Source of the DNA: Escherichia coli | GTDB taxonomy: Bacteria; Pseudomonadota; Gammaproteobacteria; Enterobacterales; Enterobacteriaceae | NCBI RefSeq assembly: GCF_045037415.1 | Contig: NZ_CP173438.1 | DNA: 64,000 nt | Strand: one strand, 5' to 3' | In this document: positions 1-41,124 of the stretch, piece after piece | Layout of the letters: every line of letters starts with the position of its first letter | How positions within the stretch are numbered: the first letter of the stretch is position 1 | Program-made: the position numbers and the translations under genes | Notes under the pieces: generated by a model | Told to the model about the DNA's origin: nothing | Databases searched by the model: none | Seen by the model: only the letters and a program-made list of their open reading frames with translations

Positions 1-539
1 CACGTTTCCAGAAAGAAGGCTTCCGCGTCGTGCCACCAGCGGCAGTGCGTCAGGGCGCGTTCATTGCCCGTAACACCGTGCTGATGCCGTCTTACGTCAA
101 CATCGGCGCATATGTTGATGAAGGCACCATGGTTGATACCTGGGCGACCGTCGGTTCCTGTGCGCAGATTGGTAAAAACGTCCACCTTTCCGGTGGCGTG
201 GGTATCGGCGGCGTGCTGGAGCCGCTGCAGGCTAACCCGACCATTATTGAAGATAACTGCTTCATCGGCGCACGCTCTGAAGTGGTTGAAGGGGTGATTG
301 TCGAAGAAGGTTCCGTCATCTCTATGGGCGTATACATTGGTCAGAGCACCCGTATTTATGACCGTGAAACCGGCGAAATCCACTACGGTCGCGTTCCGGC
401 AGGGTCTGTGGTTGTTTCAGGTAATCTGCCGTCGAAAGATGGCAAATACAGTCTCTACTGTGCAGTTATCGTTAAGAAAGTTGACGCGAAAACTCGCGGT
501 AAAGTTGGTATTAACGAACTGCTGCGTACCATCGACTAA
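1..539 (+). CDS. dapD: 2,3,4,5-tetrahydropyridine-2,6-dicarboxylate N-succinyltransferase, C-terminal part (gene begins upstream of window)
   Basis: ORF 30..539 translation matches the DapD hexapeptide-repeat C-terminus; frame stays open to the window edge, so M30 is an internal Met. Confidence 0.9.
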
Positions 540-550
540 AAGTATGTACA

Positions 551-571
551 CGGGCAGCACGACGCTGCCCG
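551..571 (+). terminator. stem-loop downstream of dapD (cgggcagc / gctgcccg)
   Basis: 8-bp perfect inverted repeat with 5-nt loop, 12 nt after the dapD stop; followed by ttgctttc. Confidence 0.45.
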
Positions 572-848
572 ATTGCTTTCTGGCTCAGAATAATTCGTCC
601 TACTCATTTTCCCCCTTTTTTAAATACGTTTTCATCTTGTTTCGGACTGTCATGTAATTCGCAAAATGAAGATAAATGTGCTAATCCATCCCATGGAATA
701 TCATCACAATAAAGCAGGTAATTTTTTGATTTTTACGCCATGATAGAAGTCTGGAAGAAAAAGGCTTTCTGCGATCACAGTCGAGCCGGGCGGGCCAGGC
801 CAAATGCTAAAATAAGCACAATTTACTGACTCATTTTGAGGTAACGCT

Positions 849-1235
849 ATGTACGACAATCTGAAAAGTCTGGGTATTACCAATCCTGAAGAAATTGATC
901 GTTACAGCCTCCGGCAGGAAGCCAACAACGATATTCTGAAAATCTATTTCCAGAAAGACAAAGGCGAGTTTTTCGCCAAGAGCGTGAAGTTTAAATATCC
1001 GCGTCAGCGTAAAACGGTTGTCGCTGATGGTGTGGGGCAGGGTTATAAAGAAGTCCAGGAAATCAGCCCGAATCTACGGTATATCATTGATGAGCTTGAT
1101 CAAATCTGCCAGCGTGACCGCAGCGAAGTTGATCTTAAGCGTAAGATCCTCGATGACTTACGTCACCTGGAGTCAGTAGTAACCAATAAGATCAGCGAGA
1201 TTGAAGCCGATCTGGAAAAACTGACGCGTAAATAA
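849..1235 (+). CDS. yaeH: UPF0325 family protein YaeH
   Basis: 128-aa ORF recognised as YaeH by translation; ATG at 849. Confidence 0.85.
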
Positions 1236-1248
1236 TGTCATTCTGTGG

Positions 1249-1270
1249 GCCGGGTAAAGTCTCACCCGGC
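1249..1270. terminator. hairpin between convergent yaeH and cdaR
   Basis: gccgggt ... acccggc inverted repeat followed by taattttg. Confidence 0.5.
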
Positions 1271-1288
1271 TGTAATTTTGTAATCGAC

Positions 1289-2446
1289 CTACCGCTCTTC
1301 ATCCAGTTGTAACGCCACATACAGCAGCAACCTGTCATCAAAATTGCCCAAATCAAGCCCGGTCAGTTCCGATATACGATTAAGCCGATATTCCAGAGTA
1401 TTACGATGAATAAACAACGCCTTTGACGTTGCCAGCGGTTGCACATTGTGGCGAAACCACGCCGCCAGAGTTCGCCGCAGCAAGCCGTTATTGTCCATCG
1501 CTTTCAGCCGCGCCAGCGGTCGCGCCAGTTCGTTGGCCTGCCAGTCGCCACGCAAACTGTCGAGTAACACAGGTAACATCAGATCCTGATAAAAATAGCA
1601 GCGACTTTCTGGCATCCGCTGTTTACCCACCACCATCGTCGTTTTCGCCGTACGATAGGATCGGGCAATACTGCCAGGACCGGTAAAATAGTTGCCCAGC
1701 GAAACGCGAAAACGCAGCTGGCCATACTCTTTCATGCGGGTAATCAGTTGTTCAACTCGCTTACGATGATCTTCTGCGTCCCAGCGCCCAAAAGAGTTCA
1801 ACGCCGGTTTCAACACCACCATTTCGGTTAGCGAGACAATCGCCACTAGATTATTACGCTCGGGCGTAGTCAGCGCATTTTGCAGTTGCTGTAACTCCGC
1901 CATTGCGCTGTCCACACCAAGCTGACCGCTGTCGACCTCAACAATAGCCACCACTCGCGGTTGATTGAGATCGATCCCCAGCCGTTGCGCCCATTCAGTA
2001 AGTGCGGGAGTATTCTCCTCAGCCTGAATCAGGTTCATCACCAGTTCTTCCCGCAAACGGCTATCCTGCGCCAACAGGTGCATCAACCGCGACTGTTCCA
2101 GCATCATTTCAGCCGTCATGCAGACCAGTTCGCCATATTTACGCAGATTCTCTGGTTCACCTGTCAGGCCAATTACGCCGACAATTTCACCTTCCAGCCG
2201 TAACGGTAGATTAATCCCCTGCCGCACACCGTGCAGATGACGTGCCACCGCGTCATCGATATCGACGACTCGTCCTTGTGAAAGTACCAGCAATGCTCCT
2301 TCGTGCAATTCACCAATACGCTCACGATCGCCGCTGCCGATAATTCGCCCGCGGGCATCCATTACGTTGATATTGGTATCGATGATGCGCATGGTACGTG
2401 CCACAATATCCTGCGCCATTTTGGTATCAAGATGCCAACCAGCCAT
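1289..2446 (-). CDS. cdaR: carbohydrate diacid regulator CdaR (SdaR)
   Basis: ORF 1289..2464 translation; start moved to the MAGWHLDTKMAQ Met (385 aa) in line with the known N-terminus. Confidence 0.85.
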   Translation of the reverse strand: MAGWHLDTKMAQDIVARTMRIIDTNINVMDARGRIIGSGDRERIGELHEGALLVLSQGRVVDIDDAVARHLHGVRQGINLPLRLEGEIVGVIGLTGEPENLRKYGELVCMTAEMMLEQSRLMHLLAQDSRLREELVMNLIQAEENTPALTEWAQRLGIDLNQPRVVAIVEVDSGQLGVDSAMAELQQLQNALTTPERNNLVAIVSLTEMVVLKPALNSFGRWDAEDHRKRVEQLITRMKEYGQLRFRVSLGNYFTGPGSIARSYRTAKTTMVVGKQRMPESRCYFYQDLMLPVLLDSLRGDWQANELARPLARLKAMDNNGLLRRTLAAWFRHNVQPLATSKALFIHRNTLEYRLNRISELTGLDLGNFDDRLLLYVALQLDEER

Positions 2447-2600: not shown

Positions 2601-4025
2601 TTACTGCATTAACAGGTAGATAGTGCTGTCGCCGCGCTGAATGTTCAGTGCCAGCACAGACGGTTTGCTGTCGAGAACTTTACGCAGTTCAGCGATGTTT
2701 TTCACTGCCTGCTGGTTCGCGCCAATAATCACATCACCTTTCTTCAGGCCGATCTGCGCAGCCGGAGTCCCCGTTTTCACGTTGTTCACCACCACGCCCT
2801 GATCTTTGCCTTTGTTACTCATCTCAGCGCCTTCAATGCCGTTGAAGATGGTGCTGGAATCAACCTGATTCTGGCTGCTCTGCTGAAGTTCCAGGTTCAC
2901 GTTAACCTGCTTCCCGTCGCGCAGTAAGCCCAGGGTCAGTTTGCTACCTACCGGCATAGTGCCCACCTGAGCACGCAGTGCGGCAAAGCTGCTGATTGGC
3001 TTACCGTTCAGTGAGGTGATCACATCACCCGCTTTAATGCCCGCTTTCGCGGCGGAAGAATTCGGCAGAACCTGGCTTACGAAAGCACCGCGCTGAGCGT
3101 CAACTTTCATCGCTTTCGCCAGATCGGAGTTCAGCTCAGTGCCCATAATACCCAACTCACCACGTTTCACCTGGCCGTATTCCACCATCTGCGAGGTCAG
3201 GTTTTTCACCATGTTGCTCGGGATAGCAAAACCGATACCGATGTTTCCGCCGTCCGGTGCGAGGATCGCGGTGTTGATACCAATCAGTTCGCCGTTCAGG
3301 TTAACCAACGCACCACCTGAGTTACCCCGGTTGATCGCTGCATCGGTCTGGATGAAGTTTTCGTAGTTTTCAGCGTTCAGGCCGCTACGTCCCAGCGCAG
3401 AGACAATCCCGGAAGTTACTGTCTCGCCCAGGCCGAACGGGTTACCAATTGCTACGGTGTAATCACCCACGCGCAGCGCATCAGAATCCGCCATCTTAAT
3501 TGCGGTCAGGTTTTTCGGGTTCTGGATCTGGATCAACGCGATATCAGAGCGCGGATCTTTGCCAACCATCTTCGCGTCGAACTTACGACCATCGCTAAGC
3601 TGGACTTTAATCACCGTCGCGTTATCAACAACGTGGTTGTTGGTGACGACATAGCCTTTATCGGCATCAATGATGACGCCGGAACCCAGCGCCATGAATT
3701 TCTGTTGCTGGCCGCCGCCATTACCGCCCGGGCCCCCCTGGCAGAACGGAGAGCTCTGGAACGGAGAACCCTCCTGGCAGAACGGAGAATCATCACCGAA
3801 GAACTGCTGGAAATTACGCGGCATACGCGGCGTATTAACGGTTGTGCTACCTTCTACGTTAATGCTGACCACTGAAGGCATCACCTTTTCGAGCATCGGT
3901 GCAAGGCTTGGCATCTGCTGGGCTGTCGTTGCTGAAGAAGTCTCAGCCGCCGTTGCAGAGAGCGGAGATAACGCCAAACCTAAACTCAGAGCCAGTGCAC
4001 TCAGTGCTAATGTGGTTTTTTTCAT
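2601..4025 (-). CDS. degP: periplasmic serine endoprotease DegP/HtrA (trypsin domain + 2 PDZ)
   Basis: 474-aa translation with signal peptide, GNSGGAL serine protease motif, PDZ regions. Confidence 0.95.
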   Translation of the reverse strand: MKKTTLALSALALSLGLALSPLSATAAETSSATTAQQMPSLAPMLEKVMPSVVSINVEGSTTVNTPRMPRNFQQFFGDDSPFCQEGSPFQSSPFCQGGPGGNGGGQQQKFMALGSGVIIDADKGYVVTNNHVVDNATVIKVQLSDGRKFDAKMVGKDPRSDIALIQIQNPKNLTAIKMADSDALRVGDYTVAIGNPFGLGETVTSGIVSALGRSGLNAENYENFIQTDAAINRGNSGGALVNLNGELIGINTAILAPDGGNIGIGFAIPSNMVKNLTSQMVEYGQVKRGELGIMGTELNSDLAKAMKVDAQRGAFVSQVLPNSSAAKAGIKAGDVITSLNGKPISSFAALRAQVGTMPVGSKLTLGLLRDGKQVNVNLELQQSSQNQVDSSTIFNGIEGAEMSNKGKDQGVVVNNVKTGTPAAQIGLKKGDVIIGANQQAVKNIAELRKVLDSKPSVLALNIQRGDSTIYLLMQ

Positions 4026-11307: not shown

Positions 11308-11313
11308 TGATTT

Positions 11314-11336
11314 TGCCTCGCCCACCGGGCGAGGCA
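11314..11336. terminator. hairpin between convergent hemL and fhuB
   Basis: tgcctcgccc acc gggcgaggca 10-bp inverted repeat. Confidence 0.45.
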
Positions 11337-11341
11337 TCCTA

Positions 11342-13324
11342 TTAACGGCTCTGCTTTCTCAACAAATAGATAAAATATGGCGCGCCGATAAAGGTCGACA
11401 GCAGCCCCGCTGGGATCTGGAATGGAAACAATACCATCCGCCCACACCAGTCAGCGAACACCAGCAGTAATCCTCCCACCAGCGCCGAAATTACGATGTG
11501 TGGCATCGTCCGTCGAAAGCCCATCATCCGCGCAATATGCGGTGCCATTAAACCAACAAAACTCAACGGACCAATGGTCATTGTCGCGGTCGCCGTCAGG
11601 CAAGCCGCTAACAGCAGCAGCGCAATTCGCGTCGGCGTCAGCGCCATCCCCACGGCTCGTGCGGTATCACCACCCAGCGGTAAAATGGTCAGCCAGCGGC
11701 GGCACAGCGGGGTAATCGCCAGCAAAATCACCATCACAATTCCAGTACGCCAGACCTGCGCATCGGTCGCGTTGTAGGTCGAACCGGAAATCCAGGTCAG
11801 AACTTGCGCCATTCGCGGGTCACCACTTGCCTGCAACATCATCAAAAGCATGGTGAACGCGGTACTTAACGCCATCCCCGCCAGTAACATGCGGTGTGGG
11901 GAAAATCCACCGCGTCCGGCGGCGATCATAATGATCAACAGCGTCACCGCCGCCCCGAGACTGCCTGTGGGTAACAGCCAGCCAAAGGCATTACCCGGCA
12001 CCAGAAACAGCATTAACACCACGCCAAACGCCGCGCCGGAGCTAATCCCCAGCACTTCCGGGCTTGCCATCGGGTTTCCGGTCAGCCGCTGAATAATACA
12101 GCCCGCCACCGCCAGCATGACACCCGCAAACAGCGCCGCCATAATTCGCGGCCAGCGCCAGGGCATCAAATCCTCGAGCAACGCCCCGCTCGCCCACGTC
12201 CAGCCGTGCGCATCACGACCAAACGACAGCGCCACCACCACAGCCATCAACAGCAGCACGCCGCCCGCGAGAGCAAACGCCAGCACGTGTTGGCGTTCAG
12301 TCGCGACACGATCGTTGACCTTCATATCCGGCGCGCTAATGCTGCGTAAACGCGGCAGCAGCCACAGTAGCAGCGGCGCACCGATCAACGCAGTGACCGA
12401 ACCGGTAGACACTTCCATCCACACGCGAGTCAGCCAGAGGATGATTTGATCAGAAAGCCACAGAATTAACGCACCAATCAGCGATGCCAGCATCAACCGT
12501 GGCAACAAACGCCGCGCCCCCAGCATTTTCGCCAGCAGTGGCGCGAACAAACCGATAAAGCCGATAATCCCCACCGCGTTCACCAGCAGCGCACTGATGA
12601 CAATCGCCAGCGACAACGCCGCCAGACGAGCGAGCGACAAGGCCAGCCCGAGATTGCGCGCCACGCCATCATCAAGCCCCATCAGAGTTAACGGGCGAAG
12701 TAGCAATAACGTCAGCATCACGCCGCCCAGCAGCTGCGGCCATAAACGCTCAACGCCGCCCCAGTCGGTTTGCGTCAGCGTTCCGGTGCTCCACAGGAAC
12801 ATGCTTTGCAGTTGGTCATGATGGAAGATAACCAGTAACTGATTGATTGCGCCGCAATAAAGGCTCACTACCAGCCCCGCGAGGATCAGCGTTACCGGCG
12901 AAAGCCGTTTCCCCCACGCGACGCCAAAGACGATTAAGCCAACAACACAAGCCCCTGCCAGCGCAGCAAACTGGCTCGCCATCGCGCCGGGGATCGCCCA
13001 GAGCGTGGTGACGGTAATCCCCAGTTGCGCGCCTGTTGCAACACCCAACGTCGTCGGTTCCGCCAGCGGGTTACGCAGCACTTGCTGAAACAGCACGCCC
13101 ACCATCCCCAGGCCCGCGCCCACCAGCAGCGAAATCGCCAGACGCGGCAACAAGCTGTAGTGAAAAATCATCTGCTCGATGACGTCAATATCCGGCGACC
13201 AGGCGGCCTGCGCCCACTGGCTGCGCGGCAGCGCCTGCGAGAAGTTCATCCAGGTCAACGCCGCAGCAGCAACCACCAGCAGCGCCAGCAATAACACCGG
13301 AAAAAGCGCAATTCGTTTACTCAC
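11342..13324 (-). CDS. fhuB: ferrichrome ABC transporter permease FhuB (duplicated permease)
   Basis: 660-aa translation, two FecCD-like halves. Confidence 0.95.
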   Translation of the reverse strand: MSKRIALFPVLLLALLVVAAAALTWMNFSQALPRSQWAQAAWSPDIDVIEQMIFHYSLLPRLAISLLVGAGLGMVGVLFQQVLRNPLAEPTTLGVATGAQLGITVTTLWAIPGAMASQFAALAGACVVGLIVFGVAWGKRLSPVTLILAGLVVSLYCGAINQLLVIFHHDQLQSMFLWSTGTLTQTDWGGVERLWPQLLGGVMLTLLLLRPLTLMGLDDGVARNLGLALSLARLAALSLAIVISALLVNAVGIIGFIGLFAPLLAKMLGARRLLPRLMLASLIGALILWLSDQIILWLTRVWMEVSTGSVTALIGAPLLLWLLPRLRSISAPDMKVNDRVATERQHVLAFALAGGVLLLMAVVVALSFGRDAHGWTWASGALLEDLMPWRWPRIMAALFAGVMLAVAGCIIQRLTGNPMASPEVLGISSGAAFGVVLMLFLVPGNAFGWLLPTGSLGAAVTLLIIMIAAGRGGFSPHRMLLAGMALSTAFTMLLMMLQASGDPRMAQVLTWISGSTYNATDAQVWRTGIVMVILLAITPLCRRWLTILPLGGDTARAVGMALTPTRIALLLLAACLTATATMTIGPLSFVGLMAPHIARMMGFRRTMPHIVISALVGGLLLVFADWCGRMVLFPFQIPAGLLSTFIGAPYFIYLLRKQSR

Positions 13325-14211
13325 GCTTTACCTCCGATGGCGTTATCCAGAATACGCACAAAGTGCATTGCAGAAAGCGTCGCACCATAGAACCAAACTG
13401 CAGGTACGCGCTGAAAGCGTCCGGCGCGGACAAACGGCATGGCCTGCCACAGCGGGGTTGCCATTAGCGCATCCATGTCTTTGCTGTTGTCGTGATCAAA
13501 ACAGAGCACATCAACGTCTTTATACGCTGCCAGACGATCGATACTGACGGCGGTACTGCCCCAGAAGTTGGTTTCCCCTTGCCAGGCATTTGGGATGCCG
13601 TACTCATCGAGAATTTCCTGGAACAAGCTGTTTGGACCGAAGACCAACATATGGCGCGGATCGATAAGCGTCGTCAGCAATAACGGGCGTGCACCACGCT
13701 TCACAAAGCGGGGTTTCATGCTGCGGATAAAGTCTTCATAGTGCGCTAAATGCGTTTCCGCTGCGCTTTGCAGGTTAAGTAAATCTGCCATTTCCGTCAG
13801 TGATTTACGCGCCATCGCCAGTGGCTGTTTGCCGTCGCTGAAGTTAAATCCGCGCCCCGGCGCAATACGTGCCAGCATTTCTGGTGAAGGGCCATATCCT
13901 GCAGACCAGACCATAAACGACGGTTTCATTTCGGTCAGCAGTTCAAGGTTGGGTTCTGTACGCAAACCAACGTCAATCACTGAGTCCGGCAATGGCGGTT
14001 CGCTGACCCACAGGCGATAGTTGATGGTGTCCGCCACGCCGTAAGGCACGATGCCGAGCGCCAGCAGTAACTCCACCGGCAACCACTCCAGTGCCACAAT
14101 ACGATTGGGATCAATAACCGCCGCGTGGGCGGTATTCATCTGCCATAACAACGGAGAAAGCGCCATCGCCGTTAACAGTCGGCGGCGCGAAATAAGAGGT
14201 AAGCCGCTCAT
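13321..14211 (-). CDS. fhuD: ferrichrome periplasmic binding protein FhuD
   Basis: ORF 13321..14214; ATG at 14209-14211 gives the 296-aa MSGLPLISRRRLL (Tat-like) N-terminus; overlaps fhuB start and fhuC stop. Confidence 0.9.
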   Translation of the reverse strand: MSGLPLISRRRLLTAMALSPLLWQMNTAHAAVIDPNRIVALEWLPVELLLALGIVPYGVADTINYRLWVSEPPLPDSVIDVGLRTEPNLELLTEMKPSFMVWSAGYGPSPEMLARIAPGRGFNFSDGKQPLAMARKSLTEMADLLNLQSAAETHLAHYEDFIRSMKPRFVKRGARPLLLTTLIDPRHMLVFGPNSLFQEILDEYGIPNAWQGETNFWGSTAVSIDRLAAYKDVDVLCFDHDNSKDMDALMATPLWQAMPFVRAGRFQRVPAVWFYGATLSAMHFVRILDNAIGGKA

Positions 14212-15008
14212 CAATAAACAAAACTCACAGGTGCAGCACCCGCCGGATGCGGCAGAATACCCATCGGGATGCCATAAATCATTTCGAGGGTTTCGCCGCG
14301 CATAATTTCCGCAGGCGTTCCCTGAGCAATCATTTCACCGCCGCGTAGGGCGACCAGATAATCACAGTAGCGCGCCGCCATATTGATATCGTGCAGCACG
14401 GCAATGACCGTCAGGCCACGCTCCTGACTTAAACGATGCACCAGCGCCAGTACATCAACCTGGTGGGCGATATCCAGCGCCGAAGTCGGTTCGTCGAGCA
14501 ACAGACAGCGGCTATCCTGCGCCACCAGCATGGCGATCCACGCCCGCTGACGTTCGCCGCCAGAAAGGCTATCGACCAGCCGATGCGCCAGCGGTTTTAA
14601 GCCAACCAGCGAGATAGCTTCCTCGACCTTTTCGCGATCTGCAACACCAAAGCGCCCCAGCGCGCCATGCCACGGGTAACGACCAATCGCCACCAGTTCA
14701 CGCACGGTCATCCCTTCTGCCGGAGGAAGCTGCTGCGGCAAATAAGCCACTTTGCGGGCAAACGCTTTGCTGCTCCAGCTTTCCAGCGGTTGGGCATCAA
14801 TAAGAATCTCCCCTTCCGACGGTGGCTGGTGACGACCAAGCATTTTGAGCAGAGTGGATTTACCAGAACCGTTGTGACCAATCAGACCGGTCACTTTCCC
14901 GGCAGGAAAGGTTAACGACAGCGGATGCAAAAGCGTGCGCCCGGGCACACGAAAGGAGATATTACGCAGTGCAAAAGTGGTATCGGAATGATTCGTGTAT
15001 TCCTGCAT
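14211..15008 (-). CDS. fhuC: ferrichrome ABC transporter ATP-binding protein FhuC
   Basis: ORF 14211..15050; start moved to MQEYTNHSDTTFAL (265 aa); Walker A GHNGSGKST. Confidence 0.9.
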   Translation of the reverse strand: MQEYTNHSDTTFALRNISFRVPGRTLLHPLSLTFPAGKVTGLIGHNGSGKSTLLKMLGRHQPPSEGEILIDAQPLESWSSKAFARKVAYLPQQLPPAEGMTVRELVAIGRYPWHGALGRFGVADREKVEEAISLVGLKPLAHRLVDSLSGGERQRAWIAMLVAQDSRCLLLDEPTSALDIAHQVDVLALVHRLSQERGLTVIAVLHDINMAARYCDYLVALRGGEMIAQGTPAEIMRGETLEMIYGIPMGILPHPAGAAPVSFVY

Positions 15009-15059
15009 AACAGCCAACTTGTGAAACGGGCACGGAAATCCGTGCCCCAAAAAGAGAAA

Positions 15060-17309
15060 TTAGAAACGGAAGGTTGCGGTTGCAACGACCTGACGTTCTG
15101 CGCCCCAGAAGCAACCATAAGTGTTAAAGCAGCTGGCGACGTATTCACGATCGAACAGGTTGTTGACATGCAGCGCCACGTTGGAGCCCGCCATGCCGAC
15201 TCGCGCCAGATCATAACGCACTAACGCATCCACGACCGTATAACTTCCCACTTTAAAGGAGTTAGCCGGATCACCATAGCTGGAGCCAGTATAACGACCA
15301 CCGGTGCCCAGCGTCAGACCTGAAAGCGGACCGTCAAAGAAGGTATAGTCAGCCCACAGCGAAGCCATGTGTTTTGGCACCTGTGCAGGCGTATTTCCTT
15401 TGTAGTTGGTGTCAGTGGTGTATTCCGCGTCAGTATAGGTGTAAGAACCAACCAAGTTAACACTCGCCGACAGTGCCGCTTTCGCTTCCAGCTCTACGCC
15501 ACGCGCACGAATCTCACCGCCTTCAACCGAGAACAGTGAACCGTTCGGATCCGCCATCAGGTTATTAGTTTTGGTAAGCTGATACAGTGCGCCAGTCACC
15601 ACAATTGGGCGATCTTCTGGCACATATTTCACGCCGACTTCATACTGTTTGCCTTTCGAAGGTGCAAACAGATCGCCGTTCGCATCAGTCTGTGAAGCGG
15701 GTTCAAATGATTCACTGTAGCTGAAGTAAGGCGTTACGCCGTTGTCGAACAGGTAGTTTACACCACCACGCCAGGTGAACTCTTTGTCGTCACGTTCAGA
15801 TTTATTACCGTAATCACGGTTGAAAGATGACTGATCGGCCCAGTCATAGCGACCGCCAAGCGTAACCAGCACTTTATCCCACTGCGCCTGATCCTGAACA
15901 TACAGGCCGGTTTGTTTCTGTTTCAGCAGAACGCGGTATGGACCAGACGGATTCGGGTGAGCGCCAAAATCAAAGTCACTACGGTCTAAATTATAGATAT
16001 CAGATGGTGCAACTGAACCGGCATAACCAAACCAGGAATCGATGTCATTACGCATACGCATAAAGTCAACGCCAGTCAGCAGAGTGTGATCCACTGAACC
16101 GGTTGCGAATTTGCTTTGCAACTGAGTATCAACAGAGAAGTTTTCTAACTTCTCATTATCGATAACGTACTGACGAGTCAGTGTATGGCCCCATTGAGAC
16201 TGCGGCACGTTAGCACATGGACTCGAAGAGGGGTTTGAAGAATAGAGCGGGTCTGAGCACATGCCGTAGCCATATACGCTCTTTTGCGAGACTTTATTTT
16301 GTGCAAAGCGCAGGTTCTGACGCACAGTAAAGGTGTCGTTAAATTCGTGGTCGAAGCTATAACCAATCATCTTCTCGTTACGAGAATAGGTGTTGTTCTT
16401 CGCGCCTTCGTTAAAGTCGGTCGGCAGACGCTTACCGTTTGGCAGCGGTTCGACAGTCCCCTCTTTCGGCAACCAGCCGTAATAACCGGTTTCCGGCTCG
16501 TTCTGGAAGTAAGAAAGGAAAGTGAAATTGGTTTTATCATTCGGACGCCAGGTAAACGCTGGAGCAATAGCATAACGCTGCTCTTCAGCCCCCTTCTGCT
16601 GGGCATTCGCAGAACGCGCAAGGCCGGTCAGGCGATAAGAGTAAACGCCGTCATCATCCAGCGCATCGCTGAAGTCAAAACCAGTCTGGAATAGGCTGTC
16701 AGTCCCGGCCTTAAACTGAACTTCTTTCAACGGTTCAGTGGTCGGGCGCTTGCTGACCATGTTCAACAGGCCGCCTGGGCTGCTTTTCCCATACAGCACG
16801 GAAACCGGGCCACGCATGATTTCAGCGCGCTCCAGCATATATGGGTCAATAACCGCATCGTTATAGAAGTTGCCCTGCATCTTCAGGCCATTCAGATAGT
16901 TGTTCTGGCTTTGGCCGTCTGCCGCAAATCCGCGGATGATCAGGTAATCATAAGTATTAGATGCGCCACGGGTTCCCACAGCAACGCCAGGGGTATAGCT
17001 AAGCGCTTCTTTCACCGACTTAGGCTGATGCAGTGCCATCTCTTCAGCGGTGACGACAGAAATAGATTGAGGTACTTTTTGAATCGGCGTATCAGTTTTA
17101 GTGCCGGTAGCGGACTGTCGCGCCGCAATAGTTGCAGCTGGCCCCCATGCGCTTTCTTGCGGCGCAGGTGCAGCGGTAACGGTGATAGTGTCTTCTTTCG
17201 GTTCAACCGCTGCCTGTGCATAAACAGACATGCCGCTAACCGCTGTGGCTACTACAACTGCGATTTTACGCAGTGAGTGTTTTGGCTGAGCAGTTTTGGA
17301 ACGCGCCAT
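15060..17309 (-). CDS. fhuA: TonB-dependent ferrichrome outer membrane receptor FhuA (phage T1/T5/phi80 and colicin M receptor)
   Basis: 749-aa translation with signal peptide, TonB box (DTITVTA), terminal ...ATATFRF beta-barrel motif. Confidence 0.95.
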   Translation of the reverse strand: MARSKTAQPKHSLRKIAVVVATAVSGMSVYAQAAVEPKEDTITVTAAPAPQESAWGPAATIAARQSATGTKTDTPIQKVPQSISVVTAEEMALHQPKSVKEALSYTPGVAVGTRGASNTYDYLIIRGFAADGQSQNNYLNGLKMQGNFYNDAVIDPYMLERAEIMRGPVSVLYGKSSPGGLLNMVSKRPTTEPLKEVQFKAGTDSLFQTGFDFSDALDDDGVYSYRLTGLARSANAQQKGAEEQRYAIAPAFTWRPNDKTNFTFLSYFQNEPETGYYGWLPKEGTVEPLPNGKRLPTDFNEGAKNNTYSRNEKMIGYSFDHEFNDTFTVRQNLRFAQNKVSQKSVYGYGMCSDPLYSSNPSSSPCANVPQSQWGHTLTRQYVIDNEKLENFSVDTQLQSKFATGSVDHTLLTGVDFMRMRNDIDSWFGYAGSVAPSDIYNLDRSDFDFGAHPNPSGPYRVLLKQKQTGLYVQDQAQWDKVLVTLGGRYDWADQSSFNRDYGNKSERDDKEFTWRGGVNYLFDNGVTPYFSYSESFEPASQTDANGDLFAPSKGKQYEVGVKYVPEDRPIVVTGALYQLTKTNNLMADPNGSLFSVEGGEIRARGVELEAKAALSASVNLVGSYTYTDAEYTTDTNYKGNTPAQVPKHMASLWADYTFFDGPLSGLTLGTGGRYTGSSYGDPANSFKVGSYTVVDALVRYDLARVGMAGSNVALHVNNLFDREYVASCFNTYGCFWGAERQVVATATFRF

Positions 17310-17330
17310 TGGTATATCTCTGATGAAAGT

Positions 17331-17360
17331 GAATGATAACGTAAACGAGAATGATTATTA
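17331..17360 (-). promoter_or_regulatory. Fur box (iron box) in fhuA promoter/leader
   Basis: Plus strand gaatgataacgtaaacgagaatgattatta; reverse complement contains GATAATCATTCTC...GTTATCATTC, close to the Fur consensus GATAATGATAATCATTATC; lies 22-51 nt upstream of the fhuA ATG. Confidence 0.55.
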
Positions 17361-17528
17361 TAAAGATGCGATAATATTCGAAACGCTGGCGGGTTCGCAA
17401 GTGATATACGCTCTGTGCGTCCATGAAGGGGCGAGAATCAATCAGATGAATCAAAAATGTTAATCTTTGCACCGTAAACCATAAAAATTCCATTACCAAA
17501 AATTAACATTTATGGCAAAGGGAAAAGC

Positions 17529-18539
17529 TTATCGGTAATACACTTCGAAGGTGGCAACAGAATTAACCCGACCACTTTTGACGCTACCCATTTTGATGTA
17601 GCGTGCTTTTAACGGAATAGTAACATTTTGATTTAACGTCGTTTTTTGAACAGGTGTATAGTCTGTATCAAATACCATCACATTGTTATTACTATCGAGG
17701 ATCTGCAGACCAACTCCTTCCGCCATTCCTGAACCAGACTCAATATTAAGAATATTATTACCCGTTACTCCAGTAGAACCTGATGAAGTAAAGCGGTAAT
17801 CAACTTTTACATCCTGAGAACATTTTTCAATCTGAATTTTAAACCGATCATCGGAAACTACAGGTGACACATTGTTAACATCAAAATCATCTGTGCCAAT
17901 ATCATTGAGTGGAACGGTAATATTTTTTTCTATAAGGTCGCATGTGCCCGGTTGAATATTGACCGGAACAGAACTAAAACGAAGCTCTCCAATAACACGA
18001 TTGTCATACTTCCAGTCAGCAACCAGTTTGCTGGTATCAATGGTCCCATTACCGACAGGTCCTGTGACAATAAACTGAATAGCTGCATGTATTGTAATCG
18101 GATAACCATATCCTTTAATCACTGTTGACGAGCCTTTATGCCAGGGCGTCATTAAATATCCGGCGGTGAGTTGCGCACTGGTGTTATTCGCCCACGCCGC
18201 GCGAAAACCGATTCCTGGCACATTAGTCTGAAACACATTGTTAAGTGGGTTATCAGTACGCATATCACCGTTTGTCAATACGGTATATCCTTGCCAGATC
18301 TCACCATTTGCCGTACAGGAAACTGAAATTGACGGACTGTTCGCATTTACTGTCGCAATAATCGTTCCAGGAACGGCATCGCTATTAACAACCAACGCAG
18401 GCACGGAGAATTGTACTGTTGCCGGATTTCCTCCATTTCCAGAAATGTTACAACCGGCGAAAACCTCAGGAATGACGCCCCAGCTAAGAAATATTATGGT
18501 CAATAATGTTCGTATATAAGAGACGAATCCTGGCTTCAT
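17529..18539 (-). CDS. fimbrial adhesin-like protein (two-domain tip subunit), last gene of accessory chaperone-usher operon
   Basis: 336-aa translation with signal peptide and pilin-type C-terminus ...ATFEVYYR; longer than a structural pilin, consistent with lectin + pilin domains. Confidence 0.75.
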   Translation of the reverse strand: MKPGFVSYIRTLLTIIFLSWGVIPEVFAGCNISGNGGNPATVQFSVPALVVNSDAVPGTIIATVNANSPSISVSCTANGEIWQGYTVLTNGDMRTDNPLNNVFQTNVPGIGFRAAWANNTSAQLTAGYLMTPWHKGSSTVIKGYGYPITIHAAIQFIVTGPVGNGTIDTSKLVADWKYDNRVIGELRFSSVPVNIQPGTCDLIEKNITVPLNDIGTDDFDVNNVSPVVSDDRFKIQIEKCSQDVKVDYRFTSSGSTGVTGNNILNIESGSGMAEGVGLQILDSNNNVMVFDTDYTPVQKTTLNQNVTIPLKARYIKMGSVKSGRVNSVATFEVYYR

Positions 18540-18560
18540 TATTTTTTCCTGTCTTATTTG

Positions 18561-21038
18561 TTATCGGCAATCCATTGTGGCTTTATAGATACCCGTGGTG
18601 TATTTTTCTGGCACTGTGACAACTCCTGTACATTGCTGGTTAATCTCTTTTCCCCACTGTACCGTAAATGTCATTGATTCTTGCACACCAGTAATATAAA
18701 CCTCCCCATCTTCACCAACAATCGCTGTACTATTCCCTAATGTCAGCAATGCCCCAAAGGGTACGCGTTCTTTATTATGGACTAATGTCAACAAGGCTCG
18801 TATTCCGCTACGTGCATCAAAATCGACACCAACAACAGCCCCTTTCGAAGGAATAACATCTTGTGTGGCATCAGAAATATCAAGACTATCGTGCCCCTGT
18901 GTATTCACAGTAATAGCGTTATGTCGATAATTCGTCATATTGGGAACAATCGCGTTTCCCCAATAATCAGTATAAACGCCTTGCGCATTTTGTACTTTTA
19001 CATTGGCACCCTCATTAATATGCACGATCGCGAATGAATCCTGCACTGATTGCCCCAATGTTACTCCATGAGCATGAGCAACCACCGCACCTTGCGCACT
19101 GTAATTCCACTGACGACTATTTTTATCATAGCTATATCCCAGACCGAATTCCCCCACTGAGCTACGATAACGTCCATTCATGCTGGCATCATAACCCACA
19201 TTATTATCAGTATAACTTTGCTGTAAATTATAACTCAGGTTGTTATCTTGCAGAGCAGTACCGCCAATTCCCAATTGATGTGATGTATTACTTTTATCGG
19301 AACGGTTTACGTTATACATCGCCCATGAATCTGGCAGCCAGCGAGAGAGAGGAATATTGAGTGTTAATGAAAATTGCTGCTCACCAGCCATTCCTGGCGT
19401 TTTCGTTAGTGTGTAATTAACAGACCAATTAATGTTACTCCAGGTCGTACTGTATCCCATTCCTATACTGCGTTCGGCCCCATGCATTCCCCAATAATCC
19501 TGTTGATAACCGTTAAGGTAGACCGAGCCCCAACGACCAATATTTTGTGAAAGATTAATTTGTAAACGATTACGCCGATTATTTGTCTGTCGATAACTGT
19601 AAATACCCTTGTCATCAGGTGTATCACGTTGATCAAGTGCTTCCTGGAAAGTGTAAAATTGTGATGTAGAATAACGATAACTTGCCAGAGTTACTGTCGT
19701 ATCAGTGTCTGGAAAATCTTTCGCATACTGTGCACGCCATGACAGTCCTGTAGCATCATCACGCCCATCATCAAACTTCGTTTCTGCTGCGGTGATATCA
19801 ACAGATACCGACCCCAGACGGCCTAAATCAGCGCCAATCCCTGTCACACCAGAATGATAAATTGAGGCACCAAGTATGCCGCCATAAATCGTTATTCCAT
19901 AGGGCAAGCCATATATCGCGGTTGCAACACCAAAAACAGGTGTCTCAGCATGATTATCGTTGTCACGGTATTTTCCAGTTGCAAGACTATATTTTAATGC
20001 GCCTTCTCGCTGTAGAATTGGAACCGTTGAACTGGCCTGAATAAAACTGTGTTCTTGCCCGTTGGTTTCTTTGATGGTGACTTCCAGATCGGCCCCCGCC
20101 GTTACCTGGCTTAAGTCTTTAATTTCAAATGGCCCTGCCGATACCCACGTTTGGTAAATAACATAGCCGTTTTGTTTAATCACAACTTGTGCATCGCTGT
20201 TGGCAATACCACGAACCACTGGCGCAAAGCCTTGTTCGCTGTCAGGCAGCATACTGGTGTCCGTTTCAAGCTTTATACCTGTCATCTGCACACTGTCAAA
20301 AAGATCGCCATTTGTGAACGTCTGCCCGACTTCCATCTGGCTTCTTAATGCTTTGATATCGCGTTGCAAACTGGTGCTGATCGACTCCCAACTGGAGTCA
20401 CTGTAAACGGTATTATTTCGTAGCCGCCATACGCCTAAATTAATCCCTGAATTTAAATTCAACCAATTTGAATTCAGGTTATCGCCATCACTGTTTTGCC
20501 GGGAACCACTGGCGTAATAACTTAACCAAACCGCACTCTCACCATCACTCCAGTATTTCGGTGAAATACTCCCTGCGGCCCGCGCATTCTGATAGATTTG
20601 CGGGATCCGCAGACACAGCGTTTGGCTGTCTAACTGGAAATCATAACGTGCGCCATCAATAATCTGAGCAATATCACCAAACTCAGTGTCATCATCCATT
20701 ACTTGTAACGCGGGAATGTCGTCAACTTTAAGACCGAACTCACGGAGATCCGCCTTTGTAAAACGAGGGATGAGCCTTTTTTTATCCGAAGACAGAATGA
20801 AGGTAATATTTCTCTTATCAAGATACTCTTGCCCCCACATAACAGAGGTAAGATATACTCCCGGAGTTAAGTTATTATTATTAACAAAATCCTCCAGCAC
20901 TTGTGTATTTTCAAGTGGGCTATCCAGCTCCAGGATACGAAGGTTAAATTCATCTCGTGCATAGCTCAATGAATACACTGCCGATAATGCAAATGTTATC
21001 CCAGTTAAGACAAATGTGCGATGCAATGGTAGCAGCAT
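18561..21038 (-). CDS. fimbrial outer membrane usher protein
   Basis: 825-aa translation with usher features (N-terminal signal, plug and barrel segments, C-terminal Cys pair). Confidence 0.85.
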   Translation of the reverse strand: MLLPLHRTFVLTGITFALSAVYSLSYARDEFNLRILELDSPLENTQVLEDFVNNNNLTPGVYLTSVMWGQEYLDKRNITFILSSDKKRLIPRFTKADLREFGLKVDDIPALQVMDDDTEFGDIAQIIDGARYDFQLDSQTLCLRIPQIYQNARAAGSISPKYWSDGESAVWLSYYASGSRQNSDGDNLNSNWLNLNSGINLGVWRLRNNTVYSDSSWESISTSLQRDIKALRSQMEVGQTFTNGDLFDSVQMTGIKLETDTSMLPDSEQGFAPVVRGIANSDAQVVIKQNGYVIYQTWVSAGPFEIKDLSQVTAGADLEVTIKETNGQEHSFIQASSTVPILQREGALKYSLATGKYRDNDNHAETPVFGVATAIYGLPYGITIYGGILGASIYHSGVTGIGADLGRLGSVSVDITAAETKFDDGRDDATGLSWRAQYAKDFPDTDTTVTLASYRYSTSQFYTFQEALDQRDTPDDKGIYSYRQTNNRRNRLQINLSQNIGRWGSVYLNGYQQDYWGMHGAERSIGMGYSTTWSNINWSVNYTLTKTPGMAGEQQFSLTLNIPLSRWLPDSWAMYNVNRSDKSNTSHQLGIGGTALQDNNLSYNLQQSYTDNNVGYDASMNGRYRSSVGEFGLGYSYDKNSRQWNYSAQGAVVAHAHGVTLGQSVQDSFAIVHINEGANVKVQNAQGVYTDYWGNAIVPNMTNYRHNAITVNTQGHDSLDISDATQDVIPSKGAVVGVDFDARSGIRALLTLVHNKERVPFGALLTLGNSTAIVGEDGEVYITGVQESMTFTVQWGKEINQQCTGVVTVPEKYTTGIYKATMDCR

Positions 21039-21104
21039 AAATTCCCTTGCGCCCGTAATATTATAAATACAGATCGGTTATTTATAGTAATACACTTCGG
21101 TGAT

Positions 21105-21821
21105 TTATAACTTTTGTTGTCGTTTCCCAGAACTTGAACCGTAGTCAGTTATCACCGACCATTCAACAATACTTCCCGCTCCGACAGGAAGACTAAACCG
21201 CTGCTCAGAAAATGGTCCTACCATCATCAATAATGCGCCAGGTTCAGATTTGCTCTCGGTGGGAACAATATTTTTTCCCGATACTGTCAGATCACTGAAT
21301 GAAATATAAAAAGGCGTTGGATTTTTTACTATGAGCTTCCCCGCTTCTTTATGGAACTTAAGTTTTTCCCATGCAGTGAGAGCATCACTATTATCCAAAG
21401 AAGCTGGCCGCCAAAATAATTTAAGCCGGGCTTTCATTGCAAATTGCAAGGTATTTCTATCTTTTAGTTCTTCTGGCATCGCAGAAACAGATTTTATGTT
21501 TGCCAGAAACAAACTTTCCCTATCCTGAGGAAGTTTGTTTTTATCACCTGTAAATACAATATGGAGTAATGTTTGCCGATTTTCTTCAAGTTTATAAACT
21601 GGAGGCGTAATGAGAAAGGGGGCTTTAGAGCCATCAATATTACTCACCCAGCTTTGCACCAAATAGCGTGCATATGCATCTTTATTTTTTAATGTGATTT
21701 GAACTTCATTTTGATTTGAAGGATAGATAATACGTGTACCGCCAAGAACAATACTTGCCTGAACTTGCAATGCCGTAAGAAGAAACGTAAAACCTAAACA
21801 AACTCGAGAAAAAACTGACAT
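21105..21821 (-). CDS. periplasmic fimbrial chaperone (PapD-like)
   Basis: ORF 21105..21854; start placed at ATG 21821 (MSVFSRVCLGF... signal peptide), preceded by ggaggg 8 nt upstream. Confidence 0.8.
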   Translation of the reverse strand: MSVFSRVCLGFTFLLTALQVQASIVLGGTRIIYPSNQNEVQITLKNKDAYARYLVQSWVSNIDGSKAPFLITPPVYKLEENRQTLLHIVFTGDKNKLPQDRESLFLANIKSVSAMPEELKDRNTLQFAMKARLKLFWRPASLDNSDALTAWEKLKFHKEAGKLIVKNPTPFYISFSDLTVSGKNIVPTESKSEPGALLMMVGPFSEQRFSLPVGAGSIVEWSVITDYGSSSGKRQQKL

Positions 21822-21866
21822 AAATAACCCTCCGTGGTCAAACAGTCCTTTCAAACACTATGAATA

Positions 21867-22433
21867 TTAGCGATAAAATACTTCGAACGTCGCAGATGAG
21901 GCATACTTACCCGCAGTCGGCGCGTTATTACCAACCTGAATAACATTGGCGGTGTAATTGAATATTGTTGGAGTAATGCTCCCGGCATTATCAACATCAG
22001 TGGATGCATCGGGAACTGAACCATCAAATTTCACATCGTTAGCACCGCCATTTTTATTTGTCACCGTAATACCCACATTTGTTGCACTGCCAGCCCCAGC
22101 TTCGCTATTTTCCAGACGCAGGAAACCTGCATCCGTTGTCGTTCCAGAAAATGTCAGGTTTAGTTTGTCCACCAACGGATCGCATTTTATTAATTCAATT
22201 TTAAAATCTTTTGACGTTCCAATACTACCGTCTCCAGAATAGTCCGCTGGGTAAGTATCTGCAAAAGTGACTGTCCCTGTTGTACTGGCAGACTCGTTTA
22301 CATTAATTTCGCAAGTATCGGCAACAATTTTACCGTTAAAGTTAACCACTCCGGTATCTGTAGCAAATACACTGGTACTTACTACAGCGATGAGACTTCC
22401 TGACACTAACAGAGAAAGCAATTTTTTATTCAT
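21867..22433 (-). CDS. major fimbrial subunit (type 1 pilin-like), first gene of accessory operon
   Basis: 188-aa translation, signal peptide, Cys pair, C-terminal ...SSATFEVFYR donor-strand motif. Confidence 0.85.
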   Translation of the reverse strand: MNKKLLSLLVSGSLIAVVSTSVFATDTGVVNFNGKIVADTCEINVNESASTTGTVTFADTYPADYSGDGSIGTSKDFKIELIKCDPLVDKLNLTFSGTTTDAGFLRLENSEAGAGSATNVGITVTNKNGGANDVKFDGSVPDASTDVDNAGSITPTIFNYTANVIQVGNNAPTAGKYASSATFEVFYR

Positions 22434-22734
22434 AAAAATCCCTTAATTATGAGGTAATACACATGATTCCATTCCAGAGCGACTGGTCAGGGCTTGATAA
22501 ATATTGATATTAGAAATATATCCACCAAATAATATTATTTTTAGATTAGAACAAAAAACACATAGCCTGTCTATACAAACTGCAGTAATAAAACAATAAC
22601 CACATGAATTTTAAAGTGTTGTTTTTATTTTAAGAGTTTAAGGTAATAAAATATAACATAAACCCAAAATATATATTAATGGTCGTATATTCATTAAATA
22701 AATATTTATTTGGTTTATCTAAATGATTTCATTA

Positions 22735-22758
22735 CGCTCTCCGCATAAGCGGAGAGCG
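22735..22758 (-). terminator. mrcB terminator hairpin
   Basis: cgctctccgc ataa gcggagagcg perfect 10-bp inverted repeat 10 nt 3' of the mrcB stop, AT-rich tail on minus strand. Confidence 0.55.
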
Positions 22759-25293: not shown

Positions 25294-25386
25294 GCTTTTT
25301 CTCCGCAATATTCAGGCGCAAAAGCCCGATTTTCTGTTCTTCTGTTGCAAGACAGAAGAAGATATCTCTCAAATTTGCTTTGGTCT

Positions 25387-32668: not shown

Positions 32669-33015
32669 TGTAACAGTAACGTGAATATAAATAAATTCCG
32701 AAAAATAACCTCACCCTATTGAAATTAATACACCCTCTCAGTTACAATCATAATTAATATTATTTTTTCGCCCCCCCACCCCATCTCACATACAATACTT
32801 TTCCCGCTGTGTATATTAACTTTTGCTTAAAAATGAATTAAGTGGATATTTAAATTTAAATGTGTACATTATTCTACTTAGTGATGAACAGATGTTAAAT
32901 TCAGTAAATCTTCACATTCATCATTAACAAACTAATCTCTTTTCCTCTATCGGGAATCCCTGCCTGAAAGGGCCCAATTGTAGTTAAACTCATGGAATAT
33001 GATTCAAGGATTTTT

Positions 33016-33600
33016 ATGTCTAAAAAATTAGGTTTTGCGCTCTCTGGTCTTATGCTGGCAATGGTTGCAGGTAGTGCTTCTGCAGATATGGACGGTGGTC
33101 AGTTAAATATCAGTGGTCTGGTTGTTGATAATACCTGTGAAACCCGCGTAGACGGCGGTAATAAAGATGGCCTGATCCTGCTGCAAACTGCAACCGTTGG
33201 AGAAATCTCTGAGGGTGTGCTGGACACTACCGTTGGTGCTAAGGCTAAACCATTCAGCATTACTGTTGACTGTAGTAAAGCTAATCCGGCACCAGGCAGC
33301 ACAGCAAAAATGACTTTTGGTTCAGTCTTCTTTGGTAACAGTAAAGGAACCCTGAATAATGACATGTCAATTAATACTCCATCTGACGGTGTTAATATTG
33401 CTCTGCACAATATTGAAGGTTCTACTATTAAGCAGGTTAAAATCAACAATCCTGGCGATATCTATTCCAAAGCACTGGATGCAACTTCCAAATCCGCAAC
33501 TTATGATTTTAAAGCGTCTTATGTTCGTGCAGATGCAAGTCTGGCAGCCACAGCAGGTTATGTAAAAACTAACACTGCATATACCGTTACTTATCAGTAA
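33016..33600 (+). CDS. yadN: fimbrial major subunit-like protein YadN
   Basis: ORF 32992..33600; start moved to [23 protein letters not shown] signal peptide; pilin C-terminus ...TYQ. Confidence 0.85.
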
Positions 33601-33696
33601 TCACTTCCATTCATATTCATAAATTGAATACATACAGGGAATAATATTGATACTCCATACTATTTCCTGTTTTTTTAACTCTACCAGGAATGGTTT

Positions 33697-34437
33697 ATGT
33701 TTTTCAACACTAAATATACAGCAGCATTATGCTTCGCAACCTGTGTAGCTTTTAGCTCGTCAGCTATAGCAGATATCGTAATTTCCGGTACACGCGTAAT
33801 CTATAAAAGCGACCAAAAAAGTGTCAACATTCGCCTGGAAAATAAAGGCAATAACCCATTACTTGTTCAGAGTTGGCTGGATACTGGTGATGACAATGCT
33901 GAGCCTGGCAGTATTACCGTCCCCTTTACTGCGACTCCGCCCGTATCACGCATTGATGCAAAACGCGGCCAAACCATCAAACTGATGTACACCGCCAGCA
34001 GCGTCCTGCCAAAAGACAGAGAAAGTGTGTTCTGGTTTAACGTACTAGAAGTTCCTCCAAAACCAGATGCCGCAACAGTTGCAAATCAAAGCCTGCTGCA
34101 ATTGGCATTTCGCACACGTATAAAACTGTTCTATCGCCCGGAAGCATTGAAGGGGAATCCCTCAGAAGCACCATTAGCCCTGAAATGGTCCTGGTCAGGT
34201 TCCGAGGGTAAAGCAGCATTACGAGTGGCCAATCCAACCCCTTACTACGTCTCTTTTAGCAGTGGTGATTTAGAAGCCAGCGGTAAACGCTTTCCGATTG
34301 ATGTGAAAATGATTGCACCATTCAGTGATGAAGTCATGAAAGTCACTGGCCTTAATGGCAAAGCAAATTCTGCAAAAGTGCATTTTTACGCCATTAATGA
34401 TTTTGGTGGTGCCATTGAAGGTAATGCCAGTCTGTAA
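33697..34437 (+). CDS. yadV: fimbrial periplasmic chaperone (EcpD/YadV)
   Basis: 246-aa translation, PapD-like chaperone. Confidence 0.85.
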   Translation: MFFNTKYTAALCFATCVAFSSSAIADIVISGTRVIYKSDQKSVNIRLENKGNNPLLVQSWLDTGDDNAEPGSITVPFTATPPVSRIDAKRGQTIKLMYTASSVLPKDRESVFWFNVLEVPPKPDAATVANQSLLQLAFRTRIKLFYRPEALKGNPSEAPLALKWSWSGSEGKAALRVANPTPYYVSFSSGDLEASGKRFPIDVKMIAPFSDEVMKVTGLNGKANSAKVHFYAINDFGGAIEGNASL

Positions 34438-34471
34438 TCAGGCAAGGATATAATTCCGCAGGAAGCATAAC

Positions 34472-37072: not shown

Positions 37073-37091
37073 CTACAAGGGACGTCAAATG

Positions 37092-37661
37092 ATAAAAACA
37101 ACGCCACATAAAATAGCGATACTGATGGGAGTATTATTATCACCCTCAGTATTTGCAACGGATATTAATGTTGAGTTTACAGCCACTGTCAAAGCGACAA
37201 CCTGTAACATCACACTTACTGGTAATAATGTCACGAATGATGGCAATAATAACTACACTTTGAGAATCCCTAAGATGGGCCTGGATAAGATCACGAATAA
37301 AACGACAGAATCTCAGGCTGATTTTAAACTGGTTGCCAGTGGGTGCAGCAGTGGCATTAGCTGGATTGATACCACTCTGACCGGAAACGCATTATCAAGC
37401 TCATCCAAGCTTATTATACCGCTGTCTGGTGATTTATCTTCGACGACAAGTAATATCGGTATGGGTTTCAAAAAACGGACTACTGATGATGCCACTTTCC
37501 TTCAACCTAACAACAGTGCGGACAAGATACGCTGGAGCACAGAAGAAATGCAGCCCGATAAAGGTCTTGAAATGACTGTCGCGCTACGTGAAACCGCAGC
37601 AGGGCAAGGCGTGCCGGGGATTTTTCGCGCCCTGGCGACGTTTAATTTCATCTATCAATAA
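37092..37661 (+). CDS. yadM: fimbrial-like protein YadM
   Basis: ORF 37047..37661; start moved to MIKTTPHKIAILMGVLLS signal peptide (189 aa). Confidence 0.8.
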   Translation: MKTTPHKIAILMGVLLSPSVFATDINVEFTATVKATTCNITLTGNNVTNDGNNNYTLRIPKMGLDKITNKTTESQADFKLVASGCSSGISWIDTTLTGNALSSSSKLIIPLSGDLSSTTSNIGMGFKKRTTDDATFLQPNNSADKIRWSTEEMQPDKGLEMTVALRETAAGQGVPGIFRALATFNFIYQ

Positions 37662-37675
37662 GAAGGATAATTAAG

Positions 37676-38278: not shown

Positions 38279-38304
38279 CAGACTGACAGATTCAGGAACT
38301 ATAT

Positions 38305-38901: not shown

Positions 38902-38952
38902 TATATCAAAACAAACGACTGCTATTATGACAGCAGCGAATAGTGGGTAATC

Positions 38953-41113: not shown

Positions 41114-41124
41114 GGAGTGACGTT

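Follow-up and report, generated by a model that had tools for sequence, protein, structure and literature searches.

Does the absence of yaeI between dapD and yaeH in this Escherichia coli chromosome reflect a deletion peculiar to the strain, or is yaeI an insertion peculiar to K-12? The original prediction offered both readings. Here, we demonstrate that the window, by which we mean the whole stretch of 64,000 nucleotides analysed (contig NZ_CP173438.1 of assembly GCF_045037415.1), carries the commoner of two alternative alleles of one site, and we consider it probable that an ancestral dapD-yaeI-orfX-yaeH arrangement was reduced twice independently, giving the two E. coli alleles, which were later shuffled by recombination. 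The name orfX is our own and stands for an uncharacterised gene between yaeI and yaeH.

The dapD-yaeH interval in the window and in K-12

The window opens within dapD (tetrahydrodipicolinate N-succinyltransferase), whose 3' part occupies positions 1-539 on the plus strand and ends in a TAA stop codon at 537-539, as seen in the open reading frame list, in the RefSeq annotation of strain SK1144 and by tblastn with K-12 DapD, of which residues 97-274 match at 100%. On the same strand, yaeH (849-1235; open reading frame list and RefSeq annotation) encodes a 128-residue DUF3461 family protein (Pfam PF11944, E=2.4e-55); cdaR (1289-2464) and degP (2601-4025) come next, both on the minus strand. The gap between dapD and yaeH is 309 bp, and neither the open reading frame list nor permissive tblastn revealed a phosphoesterase-like reading frame in it. 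K-12 YaeI used as a tblastn query had no match within the first 6 kb of the window, permissive tblastn of 540-848 returned only chance-level matches to YaeI, and nucleotide alignment of 540-848 against six yaeI-bearing dapD-yaeH intervals did not exceed z = 1.4. The window strain is without YaeI, and it has kept both the dapD terminator stem and the conserved region upstream of yaeH. The original prediction had therefore placed the end of dapD, the start of yaeH and the missing gene correctly, and it was also right about K-12: the two genes lie 1,027 bp apart in MG1655, with no spacer similar to that of the window, and the gap contains yaeI (813 bp, annotated as 'phosphodiesterase YaeI'). The K-12 protein matches the calcineurin-like metallophosphoesterase family PF00149 with 50.2 bits (cut-off 21.5) and, weakly, the TAT_signal model.

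The MG1655 locus (NZ_LR881938.1, 183.7-185.9 kb) has the same gene order as the window, namely glnD, dapD, yaeH, cdaR, degP, and shares with it the dapD terminator stem and about 150 bp upstream of yaeH. In a colinear comparison, positions 575-698 of the window (124 bp) occupy the place of 842 bp in K-12, which consist of yaeI and a short residue of orfX of which only the last ~10 codons are clearly recognisable. The difference from K-12 is thus a replacement and not a simple deletion. What both E. coli alleles have in common is a left flank of 35 bp (540-574), which includes the terminator stem at 551-571, and a nearly invariant right flank of ~150 bp (699-848).

The putative terminator hairpin of dapD (551-571, plus strand) has an 8-bp GC-rich stem, recognised by terminator scan, folding and comparison of the left junction; it folds at -20.4 kcal/mol (z=-3.8), and its stem is common to all Escherichia alleles. 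The T-run that follows the stem is interrupted in the window (ATTGCTTTCT) and uninterrupted in the yaeI-bearing alleles, K-12 included (ATTTTTTT). Among the yaeI-less alleles, the 35 bp around the terminator (540-574) come in two diverged haplotypes which differ at 7-9 of 35 positions, as between the window and O103:H2; the stem is kept while the loop and flanks change, and the adjacent 575-848 differs by only a few percent. On the other side of the gap, the right flank (699-848) presumably carries the promoter and leader of yaeH. Within it, positions 730-848 on the plus strand form a conserved region, common to both E. coli alleles, that putatively holds the promoter, 5' UTR and ribosome-binding site; the yaeI-less alleles, including that of the separate lineage E1V33, show 0-2 differences in these 119 nt, and K-12 is identical or nearly so. 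Work on K-12 has located a constitutive RpoD (sigma-70) promoter between yaeI and yaeH (PMC3946193). Our search of window positions 400-1400 found no promoter-like sites.

The window differs from K-12 at other places as well. At five intergenic spots (1237-1286, 11309-11340, 25378-25384, 51378-51380 and 62084-62113) K-12 has 85-158 bp where the window has only 3-50 bp, and these length differences probably represent the presence or absence of REP/BIME-type repeats. The yad fimbrial region (32979-42223) and the fhuACDB region (11341-17450) are locally divergent alleles, with 89.1% and 92.4% identity to K-12, respectively, against 96-98% in the rest. Between fhuA and mrcB, where K-12 has 67 bp, the window contains a 5.3-kb segment absent from K-12 (17451-22756) that consists of a four-gene chaperone-usher fimbrial operon on the minus strand, encoding a major subunit (21867-22433), a PapD-like chaperone (21105-21854), an usher (18561-21038) and a MrkD-like adhesin (17529-18539).

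Two alternative alleles of one site

How widespread is the yaeI-less state? We surveyed 5,426 complete RefSeq E. coli genomes, 5,424 of which matched the dapD-yaeH region (window 1-1300). yaeI was carried by 2,084 genomes (at a median of one place) and the window-specific spacer segment by 3,338, in a single copy each; the collection is clinically biased, so the corresponding 38% and 61.5% are not population frequencies. Since the carriers of one or the other add up to 5,422 of the 5,426 genomes, yaeI and the segment that stands in its place are two alternative, essentially mutually exclusive alleles of one site. At least 80% of the window spacer is present in 3,337 complete E. coli genomes, several of them at 100%. 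It follows that the original prediction of a strain-specific deletion holds as to the missing gene and fails as to its being specific to the strain, and that the notion of a K-12-specific insertion has to be abandoned, given that 2,084 E. coli genomes carry yaeI and that several other taxa have it at this position too.

The yaeI-less allele is held by O157:H7 Sakai, O103:H2, Nissle 1917, ATCC 25922 and SK1144, the last being 100% identical to window 1-1300 and listed as phylogroup B2 (PMC12366417). The spacers of Sakai, Nissle 1917, O103:H2 and SK1144 are of the window's allele type, measuring 309-314 bp with the orphan segment and orfX remnant described below, and they depart from the window only by single-nucleotide differences, homopolymer length and the two haplotypes around the terminator. 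yaeI is held by K-12, BL21 and strains of O111:H8 and O145:H28, and a pan-genome study placed it among the orthologous groups enriched in phylogroup A (PMC5422975). One genome, E. coli BS-04 (H160, NZ_CP172819.1, 182469-182506), matches the 126-bp window-specific segment over no more than 38 nt (segment positions 55-92), and this may be a further-deleted variant of the yaeI-less allele. In all loci glnD-dapD and yaeH-cdaR-degP flank the site, as in an accessory-gene dimorphism. The absence of yaeI is thus an ordinary presence/absence variant of an accessory gene at a fixed core-genome site, and it is the majority state, found in about 6 in 10 complete genomes. The dimorphism itself is already known, being visible in public annotations and noted in the literature.

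There is no sign of a mobile element at the site. No integrase, transposase or insertion sequence is annotated in or next to the variable segment in K-12, LR-28, GF43 or SK1144, and a search for direct or inverted repeats bracketing it found only short chance-level repeats, none of them at the junctions; these results speak against the insertion of a mobile element or genomic island. The site bears a likeness to the 'K-islands' and 'O-islands', the lineage-specific segments that Perna et al. reportedly defined in 2001 in the first comparison of O157:H7 with K-12, in that a short K-12-only segment faces a shorter non-K-12 segment at a fixed backbone position without mobility genes. Two secondary events were seen in yaeI-bearing strains. 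In E. coli EC0026B (L004, 3593-5528) an element with an integrase-domain gene and a DUF3644 gene has inserted into yaeI and cut it short at ~178 codons; the element apparently uses yaeI as its integration target, and yaeH does not lie within 3 kb; in E. coli strain 1506 (H81, NZ_CP059288.1) yaeI is interrupted by IS1X2.

Beyond E. coli, a YaeH query against species-representative genomes gave 80 Enterobacteriaceae loci. In about 70 non-Escherichia species, among them members of Citrobacter, Klebsiella, Enterobacter, Raoultella, Kosakonia, Cedecea and other genera, dapD and yaeH are separated by a spacer of ~107-121 bp with a different terminator and without yaeI. The left flank of 35 bp and the right flank of ~150 bp, common to both Escherichia alleles, differ from the ~110-bp spacer of the other genera. 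At two Enterobacter loci without yaeI the gap is longer than ~110 bp, namely 2,587 bp in E. wuhouensis (L057) and 646 bp in Enterobacter sp. BIGb0383 (L065), and these represent other inserts at the same dapD-yaeH site. Within Escherichia, yaeI is present in the type strain of E. albertii, in E. whittamii, in MOD1-EC7003 and in the GTDB 'E. coli' representative, with 83-89% amino acid identity to K-12. A yaeI-less spacer of 310 bp resembling that of the window occurs in Escherichia sp. E1V33, whose lineage is a separate one, with a dapD dS of 0.34 to the window against ~0.13 within E. coli.

In protein searches YaeI proved to be all but restricted to Escherichia (81-100% identity). The nearest relatives of the protein are few and comprise proteins of Superficieibacter electus (65%), of a metagenomic Enterobacteriaceae contig (64%) and of Verrucomicrobiota type (44-59%). 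In Superficieibacter and the metagenomic contig, yaeI likewise lies between dapD and yaeH, and the Superficieibacter yaeI-yaeH spacer is homologous to the right flank of Escherichia, unlike the spacer of the yaeI-less genera. At the S. electus locus (L090, 5619-8579) and at a second one (L091, 5711-8671) yaeH and cdaR are separated by the gene for a 986-residue M60 peptidase with a mucin-binding domain, which is absent from Escherichia.

The orfX remnant and the origin of the alleles

What argues for a common two-gene ancestor is the DNA directly upstream of the yaeH leader. In Escherichia sp. MOD1-EC7003 the dapD-yaeH interval measures 1,707 bp, and orfX lies between yaeI and yaeH. The gene encodes 235-245 residues without a Pfam domain, and its family comprises only 19 clusters in a database of 5.8 billion sequences. 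The cassette of yaeI and orfX was found at this same site in MOD1-EC7003, E. coli GF43 (one of the 5,426 genomes), some E. albertii, Pseudocitrobacter cyperus and L093; Enterobacter sp. kpr-6 has orfX without yaeI. In GF43, MOD1-EC7003, some E. albertii and P. cyperus the insertion site and flanks are as in the window, and both genes are intact in a gap of ~1.7 kb, whereas the window has neither gene. The GF43 cassette (L096, 1688-3225) is itself a mosaic: its orfX-to-yaeH segment is 95% identical to that of MOD1-EC7003, the yaeI dS between the two is ~1.0, and its dapD, cdaR and degP products are ordinary E. coli proteins. L093 (GCA_033043295.1, a TPA record labelled Salmonella enterica) combines an Escherichia-type yaeI (84% to K-12), orfX and yaeH with an IS110-family transposase between yaeH and cdaR; its species label is doubtful, and the locus looks like Escherichia.

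Six intact orfX genes, located directly upstream of the same yaeH leader, end in ...CEPVPWGIA(R/K/T)IKQVIF*. In the window, positions 679-729 (plus strand) read C*SIPWNIITIKQVIF*, with an in-frame TAA at 682-684. Frame and distance from yaeH are those of the orfX 3' end, and the stretch corresponds to the final 17 codons of the gene (tblastn E=4e-4). We interpret this stretch, which at 51 nt is short, as a decayed orfX pseudogene remnant that is colinear and in frame and from which the 5' ~93% of the gene is missing. Positions 699-729 of it are common to K-12 and the window, and 679-698 are kept only in the yaeI-less allele; K-12 retains only ...ITRIKQVIF* (~10 codons), after an apparent orfX start region. 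Over the 30 nt left of the shared anchor (708), ungapped matches to orfX number 20-23 of 30 in the yaeI-less alleles, against ~11-15 of 30 in the yaeI-only alleles of E. coli and E. whittamii and 7 of 30 in those of E. albertii. Most matches of the yaeI-only alleles fall within the 10 nt nearest the anchor; homology reaches ~30 nt in the yaeI-less alleles (binomial p 4e-5 to 2e-7) versus ~10 nt in the yaeI-only ones. Because the window has kept ~20 nt of orfX that are lost from K-12, its allele is not a deletion derivative of the K-12 allele; the K-12 allele cannot derive from that of the window either, which points to independent descent from a dapD-yaeI-orfX-yaeH ancestor.

We infer the following ancestral state and order of events. 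The Escherichia ancestor would have carried a two-gene insert at the site, with yaeI, encoding a predicted Tat-exported calcineurin-like phosphodiesterase, followed by orfX. In the K-12-type allele, orfX would have been almost wholly deleted, a few start-proximal codons being joined to the last ~10, and yaeI kept. The window-type allele would have lost yaeI and ~93% of orfX, leaving the last 17 codons, now interrupted by a stop; the 104 bp in front of them (575-678) are untraceable. Through recombination in the conserved flanks, both alleles would then have spread between E. coli backgrounds and reached one or more further lineages of Escherichia. Since both alleles would be relics of an older two-gene insert, they cannot be aligned as a simple indel. 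The 104-bp segment speaks against this scheme: a simple deletion should leave no novel sequence, and the scheme therefore needs one further event or more, be it the gain of filler DNA, a replacement or decay past recognition. Moreover, the ancestral state was read from few Escherichia lineages, with E. fergusonii, Salmonella and Shigella outside the sample, and from a patchy cassette, and transfer between lineages could mislead parsimony here.

The 104-bp orphan segment (575-678, without strand assignment) occurs in the yaeI-less allele only, where it stands unaligned to K-12 in place of yaeI and most of orfX. On neither strand did it resemble any of the yaeI or orfX alleles. A decayed yaeI was rejected as the source of the 126-bp unique segment, with local alignments on both strands against the six yaeI-bearing intervals at z <= 1.4 and permissive tblastn at chance level. 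An origin from the yaeI leader, from the 5' part of orfX or from the Enterobacter inserts of L057 and L065 was rejected too, as blastn at word size 7 found shared flanks only. An anchored extension to the left of 679 was not significant (88 of 1,000 shuffles reached the observed score). Against E. albertii the left flank might continue weakly as far as ~594, but this involves only ~9 nt and was not accepted. The segment has no phage match, and its matches in a plasmid collection were limited to seven very large (0.4-4.9 Mb), non-mobilizable E. coli records that are probably chromosomal sequence filed as plasmids; a mobile origin was rejected on this evidence. No Rfam family exceeded its threshold over the orphan or the spacer, and a known RNA family was discounted, all matches scoring far too low, as did sroE over the terminator hairpin with 22.7 bits against a threshold of 51. 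Folding revealed nothing unusual in the orphan (z -0.13 and +0.74).

Within the orphan, the only small minus-strand reading frame, of 39-40 residues, is intact in Sakai, Nissle, O103:H2 and strain 103605. A T4-C5-T6 homopolymer tract (607-621) varies in length between yaeI-less alleles in an alignment of seven spacers, and because these changes split the frame in three of the seven (the window, FMU073332 and E1V33), we regard it as non-coding and a small minus-strand protein as unlikely. Compared with the window, other E. coli show 3-4 differences in the 104 sites of the orphan and E1V33 shows 7, and its core (622-678) is nearly invariant among the seven alleles, E1V33 included. Intergenic DNA of E. 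coli is commonly conserved to this degree, and since it is normal we do not read it as a sign of function.

Among the other explanations of the locus, a simple deletion of yaeI from a K-12-like dapD-yaeI-yaeH allele, whether strain-specific or clonal, seems very unlikely to us. K-12 has yaeI exactly where the window has its gap, and both flanks are common, as such a deletion would require; yet it would account neither for the 124 bp of the window without a K-12 counterpart nor for the orfX 3' end at 679-698, and the allele is shared by 3,338 genomes as well as by an Escherichia lineage distinct from E. coli. Equally improbable is that yaeI was acquired horizontally by K-12 or phylogroup A and that the window shows the original empty site. 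The reported enrichment in phylogroup A (PMC5422975) fits that idea, and the metagenomic or Verrucomicrobiota-type character of the closest YaeI relatives outside the Enterobacteriaceae (44-59%) is compatible with an old horizontal acquisition. However, E. albertii, E. whittamii, cryptic Escherichia, Superficieibacter and Pseudocitrobacter have yaeI here as well, the variable segment has neither integrase nor insertion sequence nor bracketing repeats, and the window spacer, with its cassette-associated right flank and orfX remnant, is distinct from the ~110-bp empty site that other genera show. The explanation that we favour still includes an acquisition of yaeI by the Escherichia ancestor or earlier; the specificity of the gene to K-12 is contradicted.

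Somewhat less remote, but still improbable, is a function of 575-729 in yaeI-less strains, be it as a small RNA, a small protein or an extended regulatory region of yaeH, that would maintain the allele. The near-invariance of 622-678, the mere 3-7 differences in 104 sites of the orphan against a dapD synonymous divergence of 0.13-0.34, and the minus-strand frame intact in four alleles favour it, but that frame is split in three others, the searches for a promoter-like site, an Rfam family and unusual structure were negative, and a younger coalescence of the allele would equally explain the conservation. We hold a related proposal to be just as doubtful, namely that the site is an old trans-species polymorphism under selection, with YaeI and orfX forming a two-gene module and the 57-nt orphan core (622-678) a regulatory or RNA element. 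An assembly or sequencing artefact in the window is hardly conceivable, as identical or near-identical spacers occur in thousands of independently finished genomes.

Probable recombination at the site, selection on yaeI, and significance

It seems that the alleles have moved independently of their surroundings. Single-nucleotide differences at the 3' end of dapD and in yaeH do not segregate with allele state: the yaeI-less Sakai has K-12-like flanks and the yaeI-bearing LR-28 window-like ones. Between K-12 and LR-28 the dS of yaeI is 0.016 as against 0.115 for dapD, and this indicates that a K-12-type yaeI was imported into a window-like background in LR-28. The vehicle was likely homologous recombination in the very conserved flanks. 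Elsewhere, the dS of yaeI is 1.3-5 times (mostly 2-3 times) that of the flanks, its nucleotide identity falls to 87% within 'E. coli', where divergent classes of ~94% and ~87% identity stand beside the K-12 type, and its dN/dS is ~0.1-0.15. On these sequence comparisons, yaeI is under purifying selection where it is present and highly diverged among alleles, and the low dN/dS shows it to be functional there.

With regard to what the site means, K-12 is unsafe as a reference for E. coli gene order between dapD and yaeH, and both the 'intergenic' region between yaeI and yaeH in K-12 and the spacer of the window hold relics of a second, lost gene. To the known dimorphism our study makes a modest addition, that both E. 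coli alleles would be independent relics of an older two-gene insert. The site offers a compact and well-sampled case of differential gene loss followed by recombinational shuffling, and it might serve as a population-genomic marker; yaeI is a dispensable accessory gene, and for biology in general its absence here is of very little consequence.
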